Virus record (IMG/VR): IMGVR_UViG_2695420430_000010
DNA from: a virus
Lineage: Duplodnaviria > Heunggongvirae > Uroviricota > Caudoviricetes
Strand: one strand, 5' to 3'
Length of the DNA stretch: 7,859 bases
Shown: piece after piece, positions 1,490 to 7,859 of the stretch
Position numbering within the stretch: position 1 is the first letter of the stretch
Layout: each line of letters starts with the position of its first letter
Program-made: the position numbers and the translations under genes
Notes under the pieces: generated by a model
Database searches by the model: none
What the model saw: only the letters and a program-made list of their open reading frames with translations
What the model was told of the DNA's origin: nothing

Positions 1490-1861
1490 ATTAAAGAGCA
1501 TTAGTTCAGATGTGAATTGACATTGTGTGGCACAGGGTTGGGCTAGCGTGGGGGTTTGCTTTGTGTAAGAAACGGATGCTCTGCAAATTACTACTAATGC
1601 TTAATGTTAGTCTGATCTGCTCCCCGATGATTAATACACCGCTATGTTAGTAATGTCTGTAGATCGCTGTGTGTTGCATCCATCGGTTGACCCCACAGTC
1701 CAAACCAGACTGTCAGCTTTGATTCGATTCTATCTACTCAACCTGTCAGGTAATGTCTGAGCTAATACACAGAGTACGGCTATCGCGAACTTTAAGCTAG
1801 GTATCTGATACGCACCGTTCACTTGTTTGTACTTCTTGCACTGACTAGCTATCGTGCGCAG

Positions 1862-1890
1862 TTATTTATAGGTAATCTCCAGTGTATAAT
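1862..1890 (+). promoter_or_regulatory. Candidate sigma70 promoter with extended -10 (TGTATAAT) for the 281-aa gene
   Basis: TGTATAAT at 1883-1890; weak -35 TTATTT at 1862-1867 with 17-nt spacer; the start codon lies about 35 nt downstream, preceded by SD CAGGAGG (1917-1923). Confidence 0.35.
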
Positions 1891-1928
1891 TTTCCAACTT
1901 ATGGGAGATTGTAAAACAGGAGGAATAT

Positions 1929-2774
1929 ATGAGGAAAAAATCGTTTGGACGTTGCCCGTTTGATTTCGACGAAGATGTAAAAAAAATAGCCGCGATAAAT
2001 AAATATATCCATGCGAAATTTGAGAGGCATAAAAATAAAATAGATAACCTAAAGGGGGTGGAACAAAAATTGATGGTTTTACATTACTTTAATGTACTGA
2101 ATGAACTTAGTAATCAGGCTATATTTTCTTTGAGTACCGGAGCCTTTTCAGCATCGGAAGTATTAACTAGAGTTATAATGGAACAGGCTGCCAATCAATT
2201 TTATATAGCAATTGATGATGGAAAAAATGCACAAGCATTACTCAAGGGTAGTAAGAAATTAGTTCATAGTAATGGGAAACGGTGGCTGGAGTGTTTAAAA
2301 TCCAAAGAAATGACTAATCCAGCAGCAGATGAAAGGATTCGTATCGGAAAAGAGCTAACTGATATGTTTAATAGATTGTGGCCAAATACACCTGAATATC
2401 CTGGAACCAAAAAGCTTTTCGAAGTAATTGGCTGGGAAACACACTATCATGCCTATTACGTCCCTCTTTGTGATTCAATACATACATTCTCTGATGATAT
2501 GGCAAATATAGTATCTCTATATAATGCAATCCAAAGCGATAAAACTACTGCTATCGAACTCACTCTTGCAGTTAAACAAGAAAATAAACGGCTGGCAATT
2601 TATAATGTCGTAATTGCTATTGGCCTGCGGTGTGAGGCCTTAGTAAATGTATTTAACTCTTTAGGTTATCGAGATATTATAACTGAAATGGCGCCAACAA
2701 TAGATGCAGTCAACCAGATTATAATTCGATATGATGATTTCGAACATTCCAGAATTTTTATTGTCAATAATTAA
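1929..2774 (+). CDS. Hypothetical protein, 281 aa, function unknown (AT-rich cargo gene; possible HEPN-like Rx5H motif near the C-terminus)
   Basis: Long ORF in a strongly AT-rich stretch with a near-consensus SD (AGGAGG, 5-nt spacer) and an upstream extended -10 promoter. No family recognised by eye. C-terminal IIIRYDDFEHSRIF contains an R-x5-H spacing compatible with a HEPN RNase motif (speculative). Confidence 0.75.
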   Translation: MRKKSFGRCPFDFDEDVKKIAAINKYIHAKFERHKNKIDNLKGVEQKLMVLHYFNVLNELSNQAIFSLSTGAFSASEVLTRVIMEQAANQFYIAIDDGKNAQALLKGSKKLVHSNGKRWLECLKSKEMTNPAADERIRIGKELTDMFNRLWPNTPEYPGTKKLFEVIGWETHYHAYYVPLCDSIHTFSDDMANIVSLYNAIQSDKTTAIELTLAVKQENKRLAIYNVVIAIGLRCEALVNVFNSLGYRDIITEMAPTIDAVNQIIIRYDDFEHSRIFIVNN

Positions 2775-2879
2775 TTGGCAGAATTCGTACATGCACAACA
2801 ACTAGTTATAGTTGACCTATTTCGCTCTTGAGAGACAACCATACTCAAATCTTCCACATTGCAGGAGATTTGAGTATGA

Positions 2880-3396
2880 ATACGTCACCGAGGAACAAAG
2901 ACAGTATCATAGGCCCAAAAAGACCACTTCAGATATCTCATATCTGGGGGCTCCAAATCCGGCTTGAACTGGAAGGTAAAACGCGTGATTTAGCTCGGTT
3001 TCAAGCAGAGCTACGGTGCTGCAACTGAAAAACTGGCAGTCCTATCCAATTTGAGATAACCAAAGGGACAAGAGAAGCTGTTTCTGCATTGATAAAGCTT
3101 GGCAATTTACGCAGTAAAGACTACTTGTTCCGATCTCGGGTCGGTACTAACCAACACATATCAATCCTGCAATATAACCGAATCTTTCATAGGGGGGAGA
3201 AAAGCTTGGTCTCGAAGATTCGCTTTACAGCACACATTCCATGAGAAGAACAAAACCTTGCCTTGTCTGCAAGAAAACTAAGAATCTCCGGGTGATCCAA
3301 CTTCCGTTGGGCCATAAGAAAACGGAAAGCACAGTTCGTTATCTGGGTATAGAAGTTGATGATGCATTAGAGATCTCTGAATCGATCGAAGTCTAA
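2880..3396 (+). pseudogene. Degenerate tyrosine recombinase (phage-type integrase) catalytic-domain remnant, broken by an in-frame stop and a frameshift
   Basis: One frame reads ...GPKRPLQISHIWGLQIRLELEG...(stop at 3026-3028)...KTGSPIQFEITKGTREAVSALIKLGNLRSKDYLFRSRVGTNQHISILQYNRIFHRGEKSLVSKIRFTAHIP(stop). A second frame (3193..3396) reads ...STHSMRRTKPCLVCKKTKNLRVIQLPLGHKKTESTVRYLGIEVDDALEISESIEV(stop). Together these recapitulate the integrase box I (R), LFPS-like segment, HxxR, and LLGH...Y catalytic-tyrosine motifs in the right order. Confidence 0.5.
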
Positions 3397-3808
3397 AGCT
3401 GTCAGGGCTGCAGCAGCAGCCCTGTGCCAAGAGCGTACCAATATATGTCTCAAAAAATTGGGCACAGGTCAATATCAATACCAACAACTCTGATTGTGCT
3501 CATGTGATTTACTCCTGTAGAAAACGCAGACAGTAAAAATATTTCACTGGCTGCTTCAGACAGGGCGTCCATCATATCATTACATAACAATAGCGGGGCA
3601 CGATATCTAGACATGCAGCAACGATGGACATAGAATGAGTACAATCAAAAGCATGTTTAACTACTTTAATTTAAAAATCTTAGAATCTTAGGTGTAGAGT
3701 TCAATACTTAGTTACATACCCTTTTGAAAGCATCACAAATCATAACTATGAGCCTGTTAAAGGCATAGGTATTCTTAATTAAGAGCATTTTAATGAGAGA
3801 AAAATAAA

Positions 3809-5182
3809 ATGAAAAGACTATATTATACCCATCATGATAGTCGAACCTTAAAACTTGCTATAGAAGGTGATGTTTCTGATAATGCGAATATTTTTACAGT
3901 AATTGTAGGTAAAAATGGCGTTGGAAAAAGCAGATTGTTATCTCAGATTGCTAAAGACTGTATTCAAGATGTTCATTTCTTGAAAACTTTTAATCCATTA
4001 TTTGACAGAGAAATAACACCAAAGTTAATTGCCGTATCTACCAGCCCATTCGATAAATTCCCTCCAGGGCGTAGGTCATTAAATCACCAAAGGAAAGAAA
4101 ATAATTATCGCTATGTGGGTATGCGTGGAGAAGGCCCCTTCGGCGTATCAAATGCCGTATCCCTTTTATCTTCAGCAGCGAGAGGTTGGCTAGAGAAACT
4201 TGCTTATTCAGAAAATCCTGCAAATTTACTCGATGTTTTTCATTCTATTGATTTTGAGCCCCATATAGAGTTTGTATTTAAACCAACTTACAACGGACCG
4301 GACACTCCTGACTATAACTTCATTGGTGTATATTCAGATGAGATATTAACGGAAGTTAAGGAGTTATATTTAAAATACAATATAAAAATTGACAGGAAGA
4401 ATATTGAGAGTCTCTTAAAGTTAAACTCCGAATCACGTCATGATATTTACGAAGCACTGGTTGAAATTAATCGATTTGAACCTGAACGTAGGGCTGTAAC
4501 CTTGTCAGTCGATTTTACCAATGGTGAAACATTGGTTGGCTCGACTTATGCGAATAATTATTTTTCTAGATCAATTCTTAAACTTATGAACGCTGGCTTC
4601 ATGAGATTGATGGATATGCGACTCATAAAAAAAAGCTATGGTCCCATGTCACTTAAACGTGCGAGCTCGGGAGAACAATGTTTATTAGTGATGTTGCTTG
4701 GAATTGCAGGGCATATAACTGATGGTTCTATAATATTAATTGATGAACCGGAAATAAGCTTGCATCCTCGATGGCAGGAAGAGTTTATCATTATGTTAAC
4801 AAAAGCATTTTTAACTTACTCAGGTTGTCAATTCATAATTGCAACTCATTCACCACAAATAATATCCAATTTGCCGAATAAAGGTTGTTATATAACATCT
4901 TTGTCGAAAAGTTATCTTTATAAAGCAAAATACTTTAGCAACCGGTCTGCAGACTATCAACTTGCGGAACTATTTGATGCCCCTGGCATTATGAATGAAT
5001 ACATTGCCAGGTTAGCTTTCAATTTACTTTCAAAAGTTAAGACTGCTAAGTTAGTAACAGATGATAATTGGCGTGAATTAAAACAACTCCAACTTCTCCT
5101 TGAAAACGTTAATAGTAATGACCCTATTAATGAACTCGTAAATTCCGTATCTCAGGTGTGTGAAATTTATGCCAAAAATTAA
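3809..5182 (+). CDS. ptuA: ABC/OLD-type (AAA_15/21-like) ATPase, PtuA-like component of a Septu-type defence module
   Basis: 457-aa ORF, AT-rich. Walker A GKNGVGKS (K40 codon 3926-3928); signature-like SSGEQ; Walker B IILIDEPE (D312/E313 at 4742-4747); H-loop ATHSP (His codon 4847-4849). Immediately followed by, and overlapping, an HNH nuclease gene. Confidence 0.8.
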   Translation: MKRLYYTHHDSRTLKLAIEGDVSDNANIFTVIVGKNGVGKSRLLSQIAKDCIQDVHFLKTFNPLFDREITPKLIAVSTSPFDKFPPGRRSLNHQRKENNYRYVGMRGEGPFGVSNAVSLLSSAARGWLEKLAYSENPANLLDVFHSIDFEPHIEFVFKPTYNGPDTPDYNFIGVYSDEILTEVKELYLKYNIKIDRKNIESLLKLNSESRHDIYEALVEINRFEPERRAVTLSVDFTNGETLVGSTYANNYFSRSILKLMNAGFMRLMDMRLIKKSYGPMSLKRASSGEQCLLVMLLGIAGHITDGSIILIDEPEISLHPRWQEEFIIMLTKAFLTYSGCQFIIATHSPQIISNLPNKGCYITSLSKSYLYKAKYFSNRSADYQLAELFDAPGIMNEYIARLAFNLLSKVKTAKLVTDDNWRELKQLQLLLENVNSNDPINELVNSVSQVCEIYAKN

Positions 5183-5804
5183 AAATCCAATTAGATTCAG
5201 CGCAGAGTCATTAGATATTATTGAGAAAAAATTGTCTTCTCCAGATTTTAAGCATACCAACTGGGGAGATGATGATTTGCAAGTTCTCCGTGCAGAAATT
5301 AGAAATCATTACAGAGAAGAACAAAAGCTAGAATGTGTATATTGTCATGAGCCTATTGGGGTAAGAGCTGCACAAGCTGCTCCTATAGAGCATATTGTGC
5401 CAAAATCTCAATATCTATGTTTTATTTTTGAACCTAAGAATCTATGTGTAGTATGTCCTGACTGCAATGAATTCAAAGGTAAAAATGAAGTGTTATTTGA
5501 ACCCGTAATAAATGGGGGGCGGCGCAAAAACTATCCAACTGCATCTGCATCATTTCGCATCGTTCATCCACATATAGATGATTATGAGATGCATATTATA
5601 AAAGCAAATCGTGTTTATGTGGACAAAACACCTAAAGGGCACTATACCATTGGAATATGTAAACTAAATAGATTTTTTCATTATTTTGGGATGTGTGATG
5701 AATTTGTTAATGATGCAAAAATTGCTGAGGCAAATGAAAATTTTTTCAAAAAAGGTAGTATTACTACTAATGAATTATTGGATGATGACATTCATTTGAT
5801 TTAA
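5169..5804 (+). CDS. ptuB: HNH endonuclease, PtuB-like component of a Septu-type defence module
   Basis: Motif CVYCHEPIG...IEHIVPKS...N...CPDCNEFKGKN is a classic HNH (CxxC-H...H...N...CxxC) core. The ATG at 5169 overlaps the end of the ATPase gene by 14 nt (ATPase stop at 5180-5182), implying translational coupling. The ORF track's GTG at 5160 is a less likely start. Confidence 0.8.
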   Translation: MPKIKNPIRFSAESLDIIEKKLSSPDFKHTNWGDDDLQVLRAEIRNHYREEQKLECVYCHEPIGVRAAQAAPIEHIVPKSQYLCFIFEPKNLCVVCPDCNEFKGKNEVLFEPVINGGRRKNYPTASASFRIVHPHIDDYEMHIIKANRVYVDKTPKGHYTIGICKLNRFFHYFGMCDEFVNDAKIAEANENFFKKGSITTNELLDDDIHLI

Positions 5805-5913
5805 CTATGAATTATTATATTGTAAAGTAATCAGGTAAGATATGTTAGACAGTGAGACTATTGCCTTACAGAATTCATTATTCTTATGGATCGCCTTTCT
5901 GACTGATTTCATA

Positions 5914-5942
5914 TTGGCGGGGTAACGGGAGTTAAGTAGAAT
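5914..5942 (+). promoter_or_regulatory. Candidate promoter of the hok/mok mRNA
   Basis: TTGGCG (5914-5919), 17-nt spacer, TAGAAT (5937-5942). The predicted start lies just before the 5' element (5947-5960) that is complementary to the 3' end of the transcript. Confidence 0.35.
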
Positions 5943-5946
5943 GGCT

Positions 5947-5960
5947 GCGGGTGCTTGAGG
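5947..5960 (+). promoter_or_regulatory. 5' fold-back element of hok mRNA, complementary to 3' segment 6323-6337
   Basis: GCGGGTGCTTGAGG (5947-5960) against the reverse complement of CCTCAACGCACCCGC (6323-6337), which is GCGGGTGCGTTGAGG: near-perfect long-range 5'/3' complementarity, as in the fold-back-inhibition structure of hok-family mRNAs. Confidence 0.45.
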
Positions 5961-6060
5961 CTATCTGTCTCAGGCATGAACACCAAAGGCAGATAGAGAA
6001 AAGCCCCAGTTAACATTACGCGTCCTGCAAGACGCTTAACATTAATCTGAGGCCAATTTC

Positions 6061-6273
6061 ATGCTAGACACATGTAGGTTAGCCTCTTACGTGCCGGAAG
6101 GCAAGGAGAAGCAGGCTATGAAGCAGCAAAAGGCGATGTTAATCGCCCTGATCGTCATCTGTTTAACCGTCATAGTGACGACACTGGTAACGAGGAAAGA
6201 CCTCTGCGAGGTACGAATCCGAACCGGCCAGACGGAGGTCGCTGTCTTCACAGCTTACGAACCTGAGGAGTAA
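6061..6273 (+). CDS. Mok-like reading frame (in-frame N-terminally extended form overlapping hok; regulatory)
   Basis: ATG 6061 opens a 70-codon frame that contains hok in the same frame, comparable to chromosomal mokC/hokC as I recall them. A candidate antisense promoter sits over this start region. Confidence 0.4.
   Translation: MLDTCRLASYVPEGKEKQAMKQQKAMLIALIVICLTVIVTTLVTRKDLCEVRIRTGQTEVAVFTAYEPEE
6076..6104 (-). promoter_or_regulatory. Candidate promoter for a Sok-like antisense RNA
   Basis: On the minus strand: TTGCCT (plus 6104-6099), 17-nt spacer, TAACCT (plus 6081-6076). It would transcribe leftwards across the mok start/SD region, the usual Sok target. Confidence 0.3.
6118..6273 (+). 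CDS. hokD: Hok/Gef-family type I toxin (HokD/RelF-like small membrane peptide)
   Basis: 51-aa product MKQQKAMLIALIVICLTVIVTTLVTRKDLCEVRIRTGQTEVAVFTAYEPEE matches the Hok family and specifically my recollection of HokD (RelF). SD AAGGAG at 6103-6108. rem lies downstream, as in Qin. Confidence 0.85.
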   Translation: MKQQKAMLIALIVICLTVIVTTLVTRKDLCEVRIRTGQTEVAVFTAYEPEE

Positions 6274-6342
6274 GAGACCCGGCGAGGGAGAAATCCCTCG
6301 CCACCTCTGATGTGGCAGGCATCCTCAACGCACCCGCACTTA

Positions 6343-6369
6343 ACCCGCTTCGGCGGGTTTTTGTTTTTA
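6343..6369 (+). terminator. Rho-independent terminator at the 3' end of the hok transcript
   Basis: Stem ACCCGC (6343-6348) / GCGGGT (6353-6358), loop TTCG, followed by the T-run TTTTTGTTTTT. Confidence 0.6.
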
Positions 6370-6381
6370 TTTTCAACGCGT

Positions 6382-6411
6382 TTGAAGTTCTGGACGGCGC
6401 CGGAATAGAAT
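6382..6411 (+). promoter_or_regulatory. Candidate sigma70 promoter upstream of rem
   Basis: TTGAAG (6382-6387), 18-nt spacer, TAGAAT (6406-6411), located between the hok terminator and the rem SD. Confidence 0.3.
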
Positions 6412-6489
6412 CAAAAATACTTAAGTAGCGCGCAGGGATAAGAGGGATGGTCCCTTAAAGGGGAGAGCTAATTATCCGGAAGGATTCTG

Positions 6490-6741
6490 ATGATGAACAT
6501 CGAAGAACTGCGTAAAATTTTTTGTGAAGATGGCCTCTATGCTGTGTGCGTTGAAAATGGAAATCTTGTTAGTCATTACCGCATTATGTGTTTGCGAAAG
6601 AATGGGGCTGCGTTAATTAATTTTGTGGATGGTCGAGTGACAGACGGATTTATCTTGCGCGAAGGTGAGTTTGTCACTTCATTACAGGCACTGAAAGAGA
6701 TCGGAATAAAAGCAGGCTTTTCAGCTTTTGCAGAAGAATAA
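6490..6741 (+). CDS. rem: Rem-like small prophage protein (83 aa)
   Basis: Product MMNIEELRKIFCEDGLYAVCVENGNLVSHYRIMCLRKNGAALINFVDGRVTDGFILREGEF... matches my recollection of Qin Rem. SD GGAAGGA at 6478-6484. Position after hok is as in Qin. Confidence 0.7.
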   Translation: MMNIEELRKIFCEDGLYAVCVENGNLVSHYRIMCLRKNGAALINFVDGRVTDGFILREGEFVTSLQALKEIGIKAGFSAFAEE

Positions 6742-6807
6742 ACTCATCTACAATCTTGCGCGGGGCTGAACTCCCGCTGAGTAACACCGTGCCACCGGAG
6801 AAAACCG

Positions 6808-7086
6808 ATGGCACGCAACGTAAAATATTACAATTCTGATAATTCGCCCGTTCTTGCCTGCACGCACGAGCGGTATTCTCACGCATTCAAGTCTGAATGG
6901 TTCCAACACCCTCCATGTACTGAAGAGCAGGCTGAATGGATAATTCAGTGTTACCGCAGGCGCGGATACGAGGTTAAGAAAGCCCTTAGTCTCGACTACC
7001 GTCACTGGATAATCTCCGTCAGGCTTCCTTACTCTGAACGCCCACCGCGTCCGTCTCGCACATTCCAGCAACGCATCTGGAGGTAA
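6808..7086 (+). CDS. Hypothetical prophage protein (92 aa)
   Basis: SD GGAG (6797-6800) before ATG 6808; GC-rich codon usage like neighbouring phage genes; its stop (7084-7086) lies in the SD-to-start spacer of the next gene, implying coupling. Family not recognised. Confidence 0.6.
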   Translation: MARNVKYYNSDNSPVLACTHERYSHAFKSEWFQHPPCTEEQAEWIIQCYRRRGYEVKKALSLDYRHWIISVRLPYSERPPRPSRTFQQRIWR

Positions 7087-7087
7087 C

Positions 7088-7859
7088 GTGCGGGTATTAC
7101 TTCGACCTGTTCTGGTACCGGAACTCGGGCTGGTGATCGTTAAGCCGGGCCGTGAATCCATGCCAGTATTCCACAATACCCGGGTATTGATGGAGCCGGA
7201 ACCGAAAAGCATGCGTAATCTGCCGTCCGGGGTCGTTCCTGCCGTTCGCCAGCCGCTGGAGGAAGACAAAACATTGCTGCCGTTTTTCAGTAACGCACGG
7301 GTGATTCGTGCTGCTGGTGGTGCTGGTGCATTGTCTGACTGGCTGTTGCGCCATATTAAATCCTGCCAGTGGCCACACGGCGATTATCATCACAGCGAAA
7401 CTGTCATTCACCGTTATGGTACCGGCGCAATGGTGTTGTGCTGGCACTGCGACAACCAGCTGCGTGACCAGACATCCGAATCACTCGAGCAACTTGCTCA
7501 TCAAAACCTGTCAGCATGGATGATTGACGTCATCGGTCACGCAATAAGCGGTACGCAGGAGCGTGAATTATCTTTGGCTGAATTATCCTGGTGGGCGGTC
7601 CGCAATCAGGTGGCGGACGCGCTACCGGAAGCGGTATTACGTCGTTCGCTGGGGGTGCGTGCGGAAAAAATCCGCTCAATGTACCGTGAAAGCGACATCG
7701 TGCCGGGAGAGCAGACCGCCACCAGCATACTGAAGCAGCGCACAAAAAATATTGCGTTACTGCCTGACGTCCACCAGCAACAGAACCCACCACAGGAAAA
7801 GACGGTGGTCAGCATTGCCGTTGATCCTGAGTCTCCGGAATCTTTCATGAAACGACCTA
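7088..7859 (+). CDS. YdfU-like (DUF968) prophage protein, 5' portion; continues beyond the window end
   Basis: GTG 7088 preceded by GGAGG (7079-7083). I translated this frame codon by codon from 7088 to about 7543 with no stop, and by run-on reading to 7859; it is absent from the ORF track presumably because it has no stop in the window. Opens VRVLLRPVLVPELGLVIVKPGRESMPVFHN... and contains a Cys/His cluster HIKSCQWPHGDYHH...CWHCDN. Confidence 0.7.
   Translation, partial: MRVLLRPVLVPELGLVIVKPGRESMPVFHNTRVLMEPEPKSMRNLPSGVVPAVRQPLEEDKTLLPFFSNARVIRAAGGAGALSDWLLRHIKSCQWPHGDYHHSETVIHRYGTGAMVLCWHCDNQLRDQTSESLEQLAHQNLSAWMIDVIGHAISGTQERELSLAELSWWAVRNQVADALPEAVLRRSLGVRAEKIRSMYRESDIVPGEQTATSILKQRTKNIALLPDVHQQQNPPQEKTVVSIAVDPESPESFMKRP

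Follow-up and report, generated by a model that had tools for sequence, protein, structure and literature searches.

Does the segment at 5914-6369 of this phage DNA carry a complete hok/mok/sok module with its own RNA control, and if it does, why should such a module lie beside a group of defence genes? A sequence-only reading of the window, by which we mean the whole stretch of 7,859 nucleotides that was analysed, had described a complete and autonomous hok/mok/sok-type locus at this position. That description is upheld by Pfam and Rfam matches, by fold states like those of plasmid R1, by covariation, by alignment to the K-12 genome and by the likeness of the locus to hokW-sokW. We hold with high confidence that 5914-6369 is a full hok/mok/sok type I toxin-antitoxin module of the HokC/HokD clade, that its carrier is a Qin-like lambdoid prophage and that it is the ancestral, untruncated form of K-12 hokD. 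Good descriptions already exist of the hok/sok family, of its RNA folding switch and of the prophage copies hokW-sokW and hokD, and the window copy, an ordinary member of this well-studied family, is already carried as hokD in RefSeq. The discovery value of the locus is small, and the use of the analysis lies mainly in annotation.

Genes and predicted transcript ends of the module

The genes and their signals are placed as follows, with the basis of each assignment in brackets.

5914-5942, plus strand: promoter of the hok mRNA, sigma-70-like, with −35 TTGGCG, a 17-nt spacer and −10 TAGAAT (promoter scan)
6061-6273, plus strand: mok-like frame of 70 codons, in frame with hok (open reading frame list)
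6118-6273, plus strand: hok toxin gene of the HokD type, 51 aa (Pfam; K-12 alignment)
6342-6369, plus strand: intrinsic terminator of the hok mRNA, a 7-bp stem with a 4-nt loop (6342-6359) and then a T-run (terminator scan)
6076-6104, minus strand: candidate sok promoter, with −35 TTGCCT (6104-6099), a 17-nt spacer and −10 TAACCT (6081-6076) (by eye)
5997-6069, minus strand: predicted Sok-like RNA of about 72 nt, both ends putative (folds)

The 70-codon frame matches the HOK_GEF family (Pfam PF01848) over the entire profile, positions 1-42 of 42, with E=1.3e-23 and 82.7 bits against a cutoff of 22, and it scores 51.6 with the NCBIfam Hok subfamily model, which is below the strict cutoff of 73. 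Window Hok and K-12 HokD are one residue apart (T22 for A22), and HokD is the PGAP name for the identical protein in the 100% identical genomes. The in-frame mok-like reading frame had been recognised from the letters alone, and the frame at 6061-6273 does end in hok: its last 51 codons are the toxin gene, so that mok overlaps the whole of hok. Among the homologues aligned below, the mok ATG is at least 90% conserved, and the mok frame is found in frame with hok, at +1 or as a 19-codon short form. The observation that the start is kept while the frame varies points to selection on translation across the hok start and not on the Mok peptide. By analogy, the translation of hok would be coupled to that of mok.

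The predicted ends of the hok transcript fall where they had been proposed. The candidate promoter at 5914-5942 was recovered by the promoter scan as TTGGCG-17-TAGAAT, passing at the minimum score with 9 of 12 matches, and 6342-6359 with its T-run is the sole intrinsic terminator that the terminator scan found. Transcription would start at about G5949, a position that coincides with the start of the Rfam model, and a −10-like hexamer in the homologues lies a constant 6-7 nt before the 5' element tac. The Rfam match itself (RF01794, 'sok') covers 5949-6123 on the plus, hok-sense strand at 117.1 bits against a gathering score of 59 (E=6.5e-27) and spans the full model, positions 1-157 of 157. 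Because this match is on the plus strand, and because the model runs from GGGUGCUUGAG to the hok AUG, it describes the sense leader of hok and not the antisense RNA.

How well does the antisense gene hold up? The minus-strand promoter that had been suggested over the mok start stands in its position and not in its strength. Its hexamers are present and are conserved in place in 35 of 35 aligned homologues, where the same columns hold TTGCCT or TTGACC, a spacer of 17-18 nt and mostly TAAYCT, but the promoter falls under the scan threshold because its −10 TAACCT matches the consensus at only three of six positions. In eight hokC-type rows the sok −10 is degenerate, reading CACTCT. The predicted Sok opens with a single-stranded 5' tail able to pair with the mok AUG and the target loop; next come a hairpin of 23 bp and CUUUUCUC, and the body of the RNA is near-identical to that of sokW. 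Over the same interval the minus strand folds at −30.3 kcal/mol and the plus strand at −20.1 kcal/mol. This greater stability of the minus strand, by 10 kcal/mol, arises from G-U pairs, and a stronger minus-strand fold is what would be expected if the hairpin were selected in the antisense RNA.

A predicted folding switch in the hok mRNA

The elements through which the hok mRNA is predicted to change its fold are the following, all on the plus strand.

5949-5960, plus strand: tac, translational activator, GGGUGCUUGAGG, at the 5' end of the mRNA (fold and covariation)
5951-5977, plus strand: predicted metastable nascent hairpin, 5951-5961 with 5967-5977, which would sequester tac (minimum free energy, MFE)
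5961-5996, plus strand: stable 5' hairpin with a 10-bp stem, 5961-5970 with 5987-5996 (folds)
6001-6007, plus strand: ucb, or anti-SD box, AAGCCCC (pair probabilities, full-length against trimmed RNA)
6049-6086, plus strand: mok initiation region and Sok target hairpin, GAGGC...GCCUC (folds; Rfam consensus stem)
6049-6052, plus strand: mok SD, GAGG
6061-6063, plus strand: mok ATG
6064-6067, plus strand: YUNR motif CUAG within the target loop CUAGACA
6082-6086, plus strand: dcb, GCCUC
6281-6302, plus strand: GC-rich hairpin 3' of the hok stop, a perfect 9-bp inverted repeat (present in all folds)
6323-6335, plus strand: fbi, fold-back inhibition element, CCUCAACGCACCC (pairing with tac; fold and covariation)

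The near-perfect complementarity that had been reported between the two ends of the transcript is real. Positions 5947-5960 (GCGGGTGCTTGAGG) are the reverse complement of 6323-6337 (CCTCAACGCACCCGC) save for a bulged C at 6329, and the tac/fbi duplex comprises 12 bp with one bulge. When both strands of the 7.9-kb window were ranked as partners of the 5' element, disregarding its trivial self-complement on the opposite strand, the segment at 6323-6337 came out best at −21.5 kcal/mol, with the runner-up at −18.8 kcal/mol. Shuffled 3' UTRs equalled or exceeded the 5'/3' pairing in 16 of 2000 trials. A separate 7-nt complementarity, between GTTAAGT (5931-5937) and ACTTAAC (6338-6344), involves the untranscribed promoter spacer and was taken as chance.

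Structure prediction, which had been proposed for 5940-6370, was run on the 418-nt RNA 5949-6366 and reproduced both a closed tac/fbi state and an open tac/ucb state. This RNA folds better than its shuffles (z = −7.1), none of 100 being as good. In the ensemble of the full-length RNA the probability of tac/fbi pairing is 1.0, C6004 of ucb pairs with G6052 of the mok SD with a probability of 0.995, and tac/ucb pairing has a probability of 0. Trimming the 3' end in silico to 6310-6322 brings tac/ucb to 0.55-0.76 and lowers ucb/SD to 0.22-0.44, while trimming to 6300 gives a tac/ucb probability of only 0.16. For the trimmed RNA the two states are almost equal in MFE, at −138.7 kcal/mol unconstrained and −138.6 kcal/mol with the tac-stem enforced. 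The target hairpin 6049-6086 forms when the trimmed RNA is folded under constraint, as well as in isolation. The mean unpaired probability of the mok SD/AUG hardly changes between the full-length and trimmed RNAs under plain thermodynamic folding; for this reason it is not used as support, and the switch is visible only in specific pair probabilities.

Nascent RNAs of 32-52 nt have the metastable hairpin as their MFE structure, at −16.9 to −17.1 kcal/mol, and in the folding model this hairpin gives way once 6001-6007 has been transcribed. The local inverted repeat that had been noted near the 5' end also exists, although its coordinates had been given one base off: CTATCTG occupies 5961-5967 and CAGATAG 5990-5996. 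Metastable, closed and open states have been described for the hok mRNA of plasmid R1 (PMC9841398), and the predicted nascent, full-length and trimmed folds of the window RNA correspond, respectively, to the metastable, closed (tac/fbi) and open (tac/ucb) states of that model. Following R1, the hairpin at 6281-6302 is likely to be the protective 3' hairpin of the processed mRNA (PMC9841398).

Evidence that these pairings are maintained comes from homologues. A three-sequence Hok alignment served as the seed for a search of species-representative genomes, in which one scan yielded 80 hok loci; a tblastn search of plasmids with Hok returned close relatives only, at least 90% identical, and no wider diversity. 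Thirty-five full-length mRNAs from about eight genera were aligned, the names represented being Escherichia, Kluyvera, Citrobacter, Pseudocitrobacter, Photorhabdus, Pantoea, Mixta, Sodalis and Erwinia, and the rows left out were relE-truncated loci, loci disrupted downstream, a frameshifted copy and misaligned rows. Pairing of tac with fbi was tested in each homologue on alignment-anchored short segments, and a homologue was retained only if the anchored duplex reached −14 kcal/mol or lower. In the 35 homologues 91.4% of tac/fbi cells are paired, a percentage inflated by this energy pre-filter, against 31-56% with a slid partner. Compensatory changes are not inflated in this way, and such double-sided changes occur in 5 of the 12 tac/fbi pairs; the covariation by which the sequence-only reading had proposed to judge its long-range pairing is thus present, with five compensated pairs. 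Pair 4:412, for example, is UA in 24 homologues, CG in 9 and UG in 2 and is unpaired in none; position 4, although paired in tac/fbi, bulges out of the tac-stem. In Mixta and Sodalis UUGAGG/CCUCAA is swapped for pairs of the CUCUGGAUC/GAUCCAUGAG type. The stable 5' hairpin is paired in 92.6% of cells with double changes at 4 pairs, whereas the tac-stem is 98% paired but almost invariant; jointly, the tac-stem and the hairpin have 95% of cells paired.

The mechanism that we propose follows the R1 paradigm. Its sequence and folding steps are those given above, and its biochemical steps, like the expression, processing, toxicity and biological role of the window copy, are ones that we infer. A transcript of about 418 nt would start near 5949 and end at the 6342-6369 terminator, and during its synthesis the 5' tac would be held in the metastable hairpin. 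In the finished RNA tac would pair with fbi and ucb would cover the mok SD, permitting neither translation nor Sok binding. Slow 3' trimming would then remove fbi, moving tac onto ucb and releasing the mok SD/AUG into a hairpin that exposes the YUNR loop. The short, unstable Sok, read from the minus strand from about 6069 to 5997, would bind this loop by its 5' tail, block translation of mok and hence of the coupled hok, and trigger cleavage by RNase III. If Sok synthesis were to stop, through loss of the element, transcriptional shut-off or prophage induction, processed hok mRNA would be translated and the 51-aa membrane peptide Hok would kill or lyse the cell.

Genomic setting and candidate roles

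The module is widespread. The 521-nt locus is 100% identical in 13 E. coli records among the matches listed (12 chromosomes and the 8.5-kb NZ_CP148379.1, the latter also held in the plasmid collection), and 666 records carry it at 99% identity or more. Of 5,426 complete E. coli genomes, 3,824 have 80% or more of the locus, under the PGAP name hokD, while the entire 7.9-kb arrangement occurs in 17 genomes only. Its place is the early-right region, with the replication genes on one side and the Q antiterminator on the other. In the isolated phage HannyBb a 98.6% identical copy occupies the corresponding site, flanked by the replication genes and rem/DUF968/Q, and FORC 064, E24377A and SW071614 have the same neighbours as the window.

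A defence island had been said to flank the locus directly, and it does: PADLOC places the Septu genes PtuA (1.2e-165) and PtuB (1.1e-83) immediately upstream. The adjacency is that of a prophage cargo slot. This variable slot extends from about 1577 to 5876 and holds Septu, an AIPR protein (E24377A), a retron Ec67-family gene (SW071614) or relBE (K-12). Its right junction at 5877, which is 37 nt before the hok −35, is identical in HannyBb, E24377A and SW071614, the FORC 064-like strains also being counted. A survey of hok loci found enrichment in prophages (23% against 5% expected) without enrichment near defence systems (12% against 9.4% expected) (bioRxiv 10.1101/2025.08.07.668861). Since hok belongs to the fixed backbone and the defence genes are swappable cargo, the adjacency requires no functional link and is best explained by prophage architecture, not by a new composite system. 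Membership of hok in the Septu system was considered and rejected, given that no PADLOC model matches Hok, that the cargo is swappable while hok is fixed and that the survey shows no defence enrichment. A literature search for a described hokD-adjacent hotspot returned only general papers on prophage hotspots.

What, then, would the module do for its prophage? Prophage maintenance, help with lysis as for hokW and phage exclusion are candidate roles. One possibility, which we regard as tentative, is that the main role lies in the lytic programme of the prophage, such that Hok made after SOS induction helps lysis and release instead of stabilising the element or aborting infection. The location in the early-right region between the replication genes and Q fits such a role, as does the finding that hokW-sokW, at 91.9-92.6% identity, facilitates the release of Sp5 (PMC8621323). 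The C-terminus of window Hok is, however, unlike that of HokW, the genomic context is unlike that of Sp5, with homology ending at the module borders, and many Qin-like prophages are cryptic and non-inducible.

It is rather unlikely that the copy is intact in sequence and yet physiologically silent, permanently held off or barely expressed and having no role in killing, maintenance or defence. Silence has been proposed for chromosomal hok loci of the K-12 type, both the hok and sok promoters are only moderate matches to consensus, and the host prophage looks degraded, its relatives having IS fragments, an integrase pseudogene and a truncated DUF968 gene. The Hok survey cites chromosomal hokA, hokB and hokC as giving no post-segregational killing (bioRxiv 10.1101/2025.08.07.668861). 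Against silence, all regulatory elements are preserved, with compensatory changes across genera, a sign that selection still acts on the RNA switch; the isolated phage HannyBb has the same locus; and hokW-sokW, identical at roughly 92-93%, is an active system with an effect on phage release (PMC8621323).

An abortive-infection or exclusion device working with Septu is improbable. Such a device would be set off by an infecting phage that halts host transcription: Sok would then be lost by decay, leaving Hok to kill the cell. The R1 hok/sok system is said to exclude T4, and this is reportedly the phage-defence role that is ascribed to hok/Sok. A role of this kind is cited in the Hok survey (bioRxiv 10.1101/2025.08.07.668861). 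PtuA and PtuB do lie immediately upstream, and in other strains the slot holds an AIPR protein, a retron Ec67-family gene or relBE; yet hok loci are enriched in prophages and not near defence systems in the same survey, hok is fixed where the defence cargo is swapped, and Hok matches no PADLOC model. Least probable of all is a functional cooperation of Hok with the cargo, for example as a backup killer that senses transcriptional shut-off. In this reading hok/sok would anchor, as its constant right-hand end, a hotspot for defence cargo in Qin-like lambdoid prophages, and the relBE-hokD fusion of K-12 would be the by-product of a cargo swap that overshot the junction.

Comparison with known hok loci

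Taken as a complete hok/mok/sok module of a Qin-like prophage, the locus can be set beside four known systems. With hok/mok/sok (parB) of plasmid R1 it shares its architecture and its predicted folding pathway (model: PMC9841398). Common to both are the metastable hairpin, the tac/fbi, ucb/SD and tac/ucb pairings, the YUNR loop, and a Sok, predicted for the window, in which a 5' tail precedes a terminator hairpin. Among the homologues, loci of the R1 type carry GGCGCUUGAGG as tac, with fbi variants to match, and the window Sok is about 8 nt longer than that of R1 because of a 16-nt insertion in the window hairpin. R1 is plasmid-borne and has a demonstrated function in post-segregational killing. 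The mok frame of R1 is out of frame with hok, whereas that of the window is in frame, and R1 Hok, in what we take to be its sequence, has 45% protein identity to window Hok.

HokC, again in the sequence that we assume for it, is closer, at 80% identity to window Hok. The hokC (gef)/mokC/sokC locus likewise has an in-frame mok, of 69 codons, and the same tac sequence, and its fbi pairs by way of G-U variants. That locus differs in being without the 16-18 nt Sok-hairpin insertion, in having TTGACC as the sok −35, and in its chromosomal site and terminator. A K-12-like hokC copy in the homologue set (L020) has foreign sequence directly 3', presumably an IS insertion.

A third system, hokW-sokW of Sakai prophage 5 (Stx2 phage VT2-Sakai, E. 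coli O157:H7), is 91.9-92.6% identical in nucleotides over exactly 5914-6345. It matches the window letter for letter in tac, in ucb, in the mok SD/ATG, in fbi and in the two sok promoter hexamers, and it too has a 70-codon mok in frame with a 51-aa Hok. The two differ by five substitutions in the region of the Sok 5' tail and its target (6053-6069), in the −35 region of the hok promoter, in the terminator and in the C-terminus of Hok, which reads FTAYEPEE in the window and FVDYESEK in HokW. Homology to VT2-Sakai (Sp5) ends exactly at 5914 and 6345, the surrounding phage context being unrelated, and the borders of the module are fixed by this comparison at 5914-6345. The hokW-sokW pair is an experimentally established type I toxin-antitoxin system, in which sokW, driven by its own promoter, neutralises the toxicity of HokW, and both RNAs are seen on northern blots (PMC8621323). 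In the same report, mutations in the sokW promoter, around the −10 according to a figure legend, unmask toxicity, a figure title indicates a link to RNase III, and hokW-sokW aids the release of Sp5 after mitomycin C in a RecA-dependent manner (PMC8621323).

The remaining comparison is with hokD (relF) of the Qin prophage in K-12, which the sequence-only reading had placed downstream of relBE, unlike the window; the alignment to K-12 bears this out. The K-12 gene is in the orthologous position, upstream of rem-ydfU-ydfT(Q), and Qin is collinear with 6104-7859 of the window at 92.4% identity across the whole stretch. Within the locus, hok, fbi and the terminator are near-identical, and the K-12 protein, one amino acid apart from window Hok, is a previously characterised toxic control (bioRxiv 10.1101/2025.08.07.668861). 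K-12 shares the locus only from 6104 (the hok SD) onward because relB-relE sequence has replaced the hokD leader, leaving that copy without the promoter, tac, ucb, the mok start and the sok gene, including its −10 and most of its −35 hexamer. A relE-truncated arrangement like that of K-12 is also found in a Kluyvera and in an unclassified enterobacterium. As K-12 has nothing of the locus to the left of 6104, the window holds the complete form; for annotation, the common E. coli 'hokD' is usually a complete module equipped with mok and sok, and the K-12 reference copy is its truncated exception.

A variable cargo slot beside the hok module

Comparison with relatives resolves a variable slot at window 1577-5876, with the prophage replication module to its left and the hok module (the type I toxin-antitoxin locus at 5914-6369) to its right, and the genes found there differ from one relative to the next as listed below.

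Junctions and cargo of the variable slot, from comparison with relatives
~1576: left junction
5877: right junction
Window, 1577-5876: DUF5677 gene, integrase pseudogene and Septu system
Window, 3809-5804: the Septu system, PtuA and PtuB (PADLOC)
Strain E24377A: AIPR protein
Strain SW071614: retron Ec67-family RT/endonuclease
E. coli K-12: relBE/ydfV/flxA
Phage HannyBb: methyltransferase and one hypothetical gene

Three comparators (HannyBb, E24377A and SW071614) share an identical right junction at 5877. Within the window, the Septu system detected by PADLOC comprises a PtuA of 457 aa (1.2e-165) and the HNH nuclease PtuB of 214 aa (1.1e-83), encoded by reading frames that overlap by 23 nt. The slot looks like a hotspot for defence cargo, and a literature search for such a hotspot next to the hok module found no description of one.

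Left edge and right flank

Features outside the slot
1-101: region matching IS3-adjacent sequence
102-728: DnaT-like replication gene region
6382-6411: promoter-like site, TTGAAG-18-TAGAAT (promoter scan)

The first ~100 nt match sequence adjoining IS3-family elements in other genomes at 98-100% identity, and for most full-window relatives the alignment begins only at position 100. Based on these two observations, the DnaT-like replication gene at the left edge of the window appears to be interrupted by an IS end. On the other side, the promoter-like site lies just past the hok terminator and 79 nt ahead of rem (6490-6741), and it may be the rem promoter.

The hok leader, coding region and homologous loci

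Window 5949-6123 matches RF01794, an Rfam family that bears the name 'sok antitoxin', on the + strand, which is the hok-sense strand. Since the family's consensus spans the tac element (the 5' element of hok mRNA) to the hok AUG, hits to it identify the leader of the hok mRNA and lie on the strand opposite the real Sok RNA.

The K-12-type truncation, which brings relE directly up to the hok SD (window 6104), is observed in homologous loci L002 (K-12), L011, L012, L027 and L032. The same relE-hok junction occurs in a Kluyvera sp. (L027) and an unclassified Enterobacteriaceae genome (L032), and the truncation is therefore not confined to K-12. These loci keep the fbi element and terminator although tac is lost.

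In the coding region, the Hok Tyr47 codon, TAC, is followed by G (UACG, 6256-6259), and the surrounding TTACGAA is nearly invariant in nucleotides across genera in the homologue alignment. A survey of Hok described TadA A-to-I editing in hokB, hokC, hokD and hokE mRNAs (bioRxiv 10.1101/2025.08.07.668861), and this UACG context may be the site concerned.

Among E. coli genomes with any match, the median number of matching places is 2 and the maximum 10. Within the leader, divergence from hokW-sokW of VT2-Sakai (L083) is greatest in the Sok 5'-tail/target region at 6053-6069, where 5 substitutions occur in 17 nt whereas the flanks are identical; such divergence could restrict cross-talk among several hok/sok copies in one cell.
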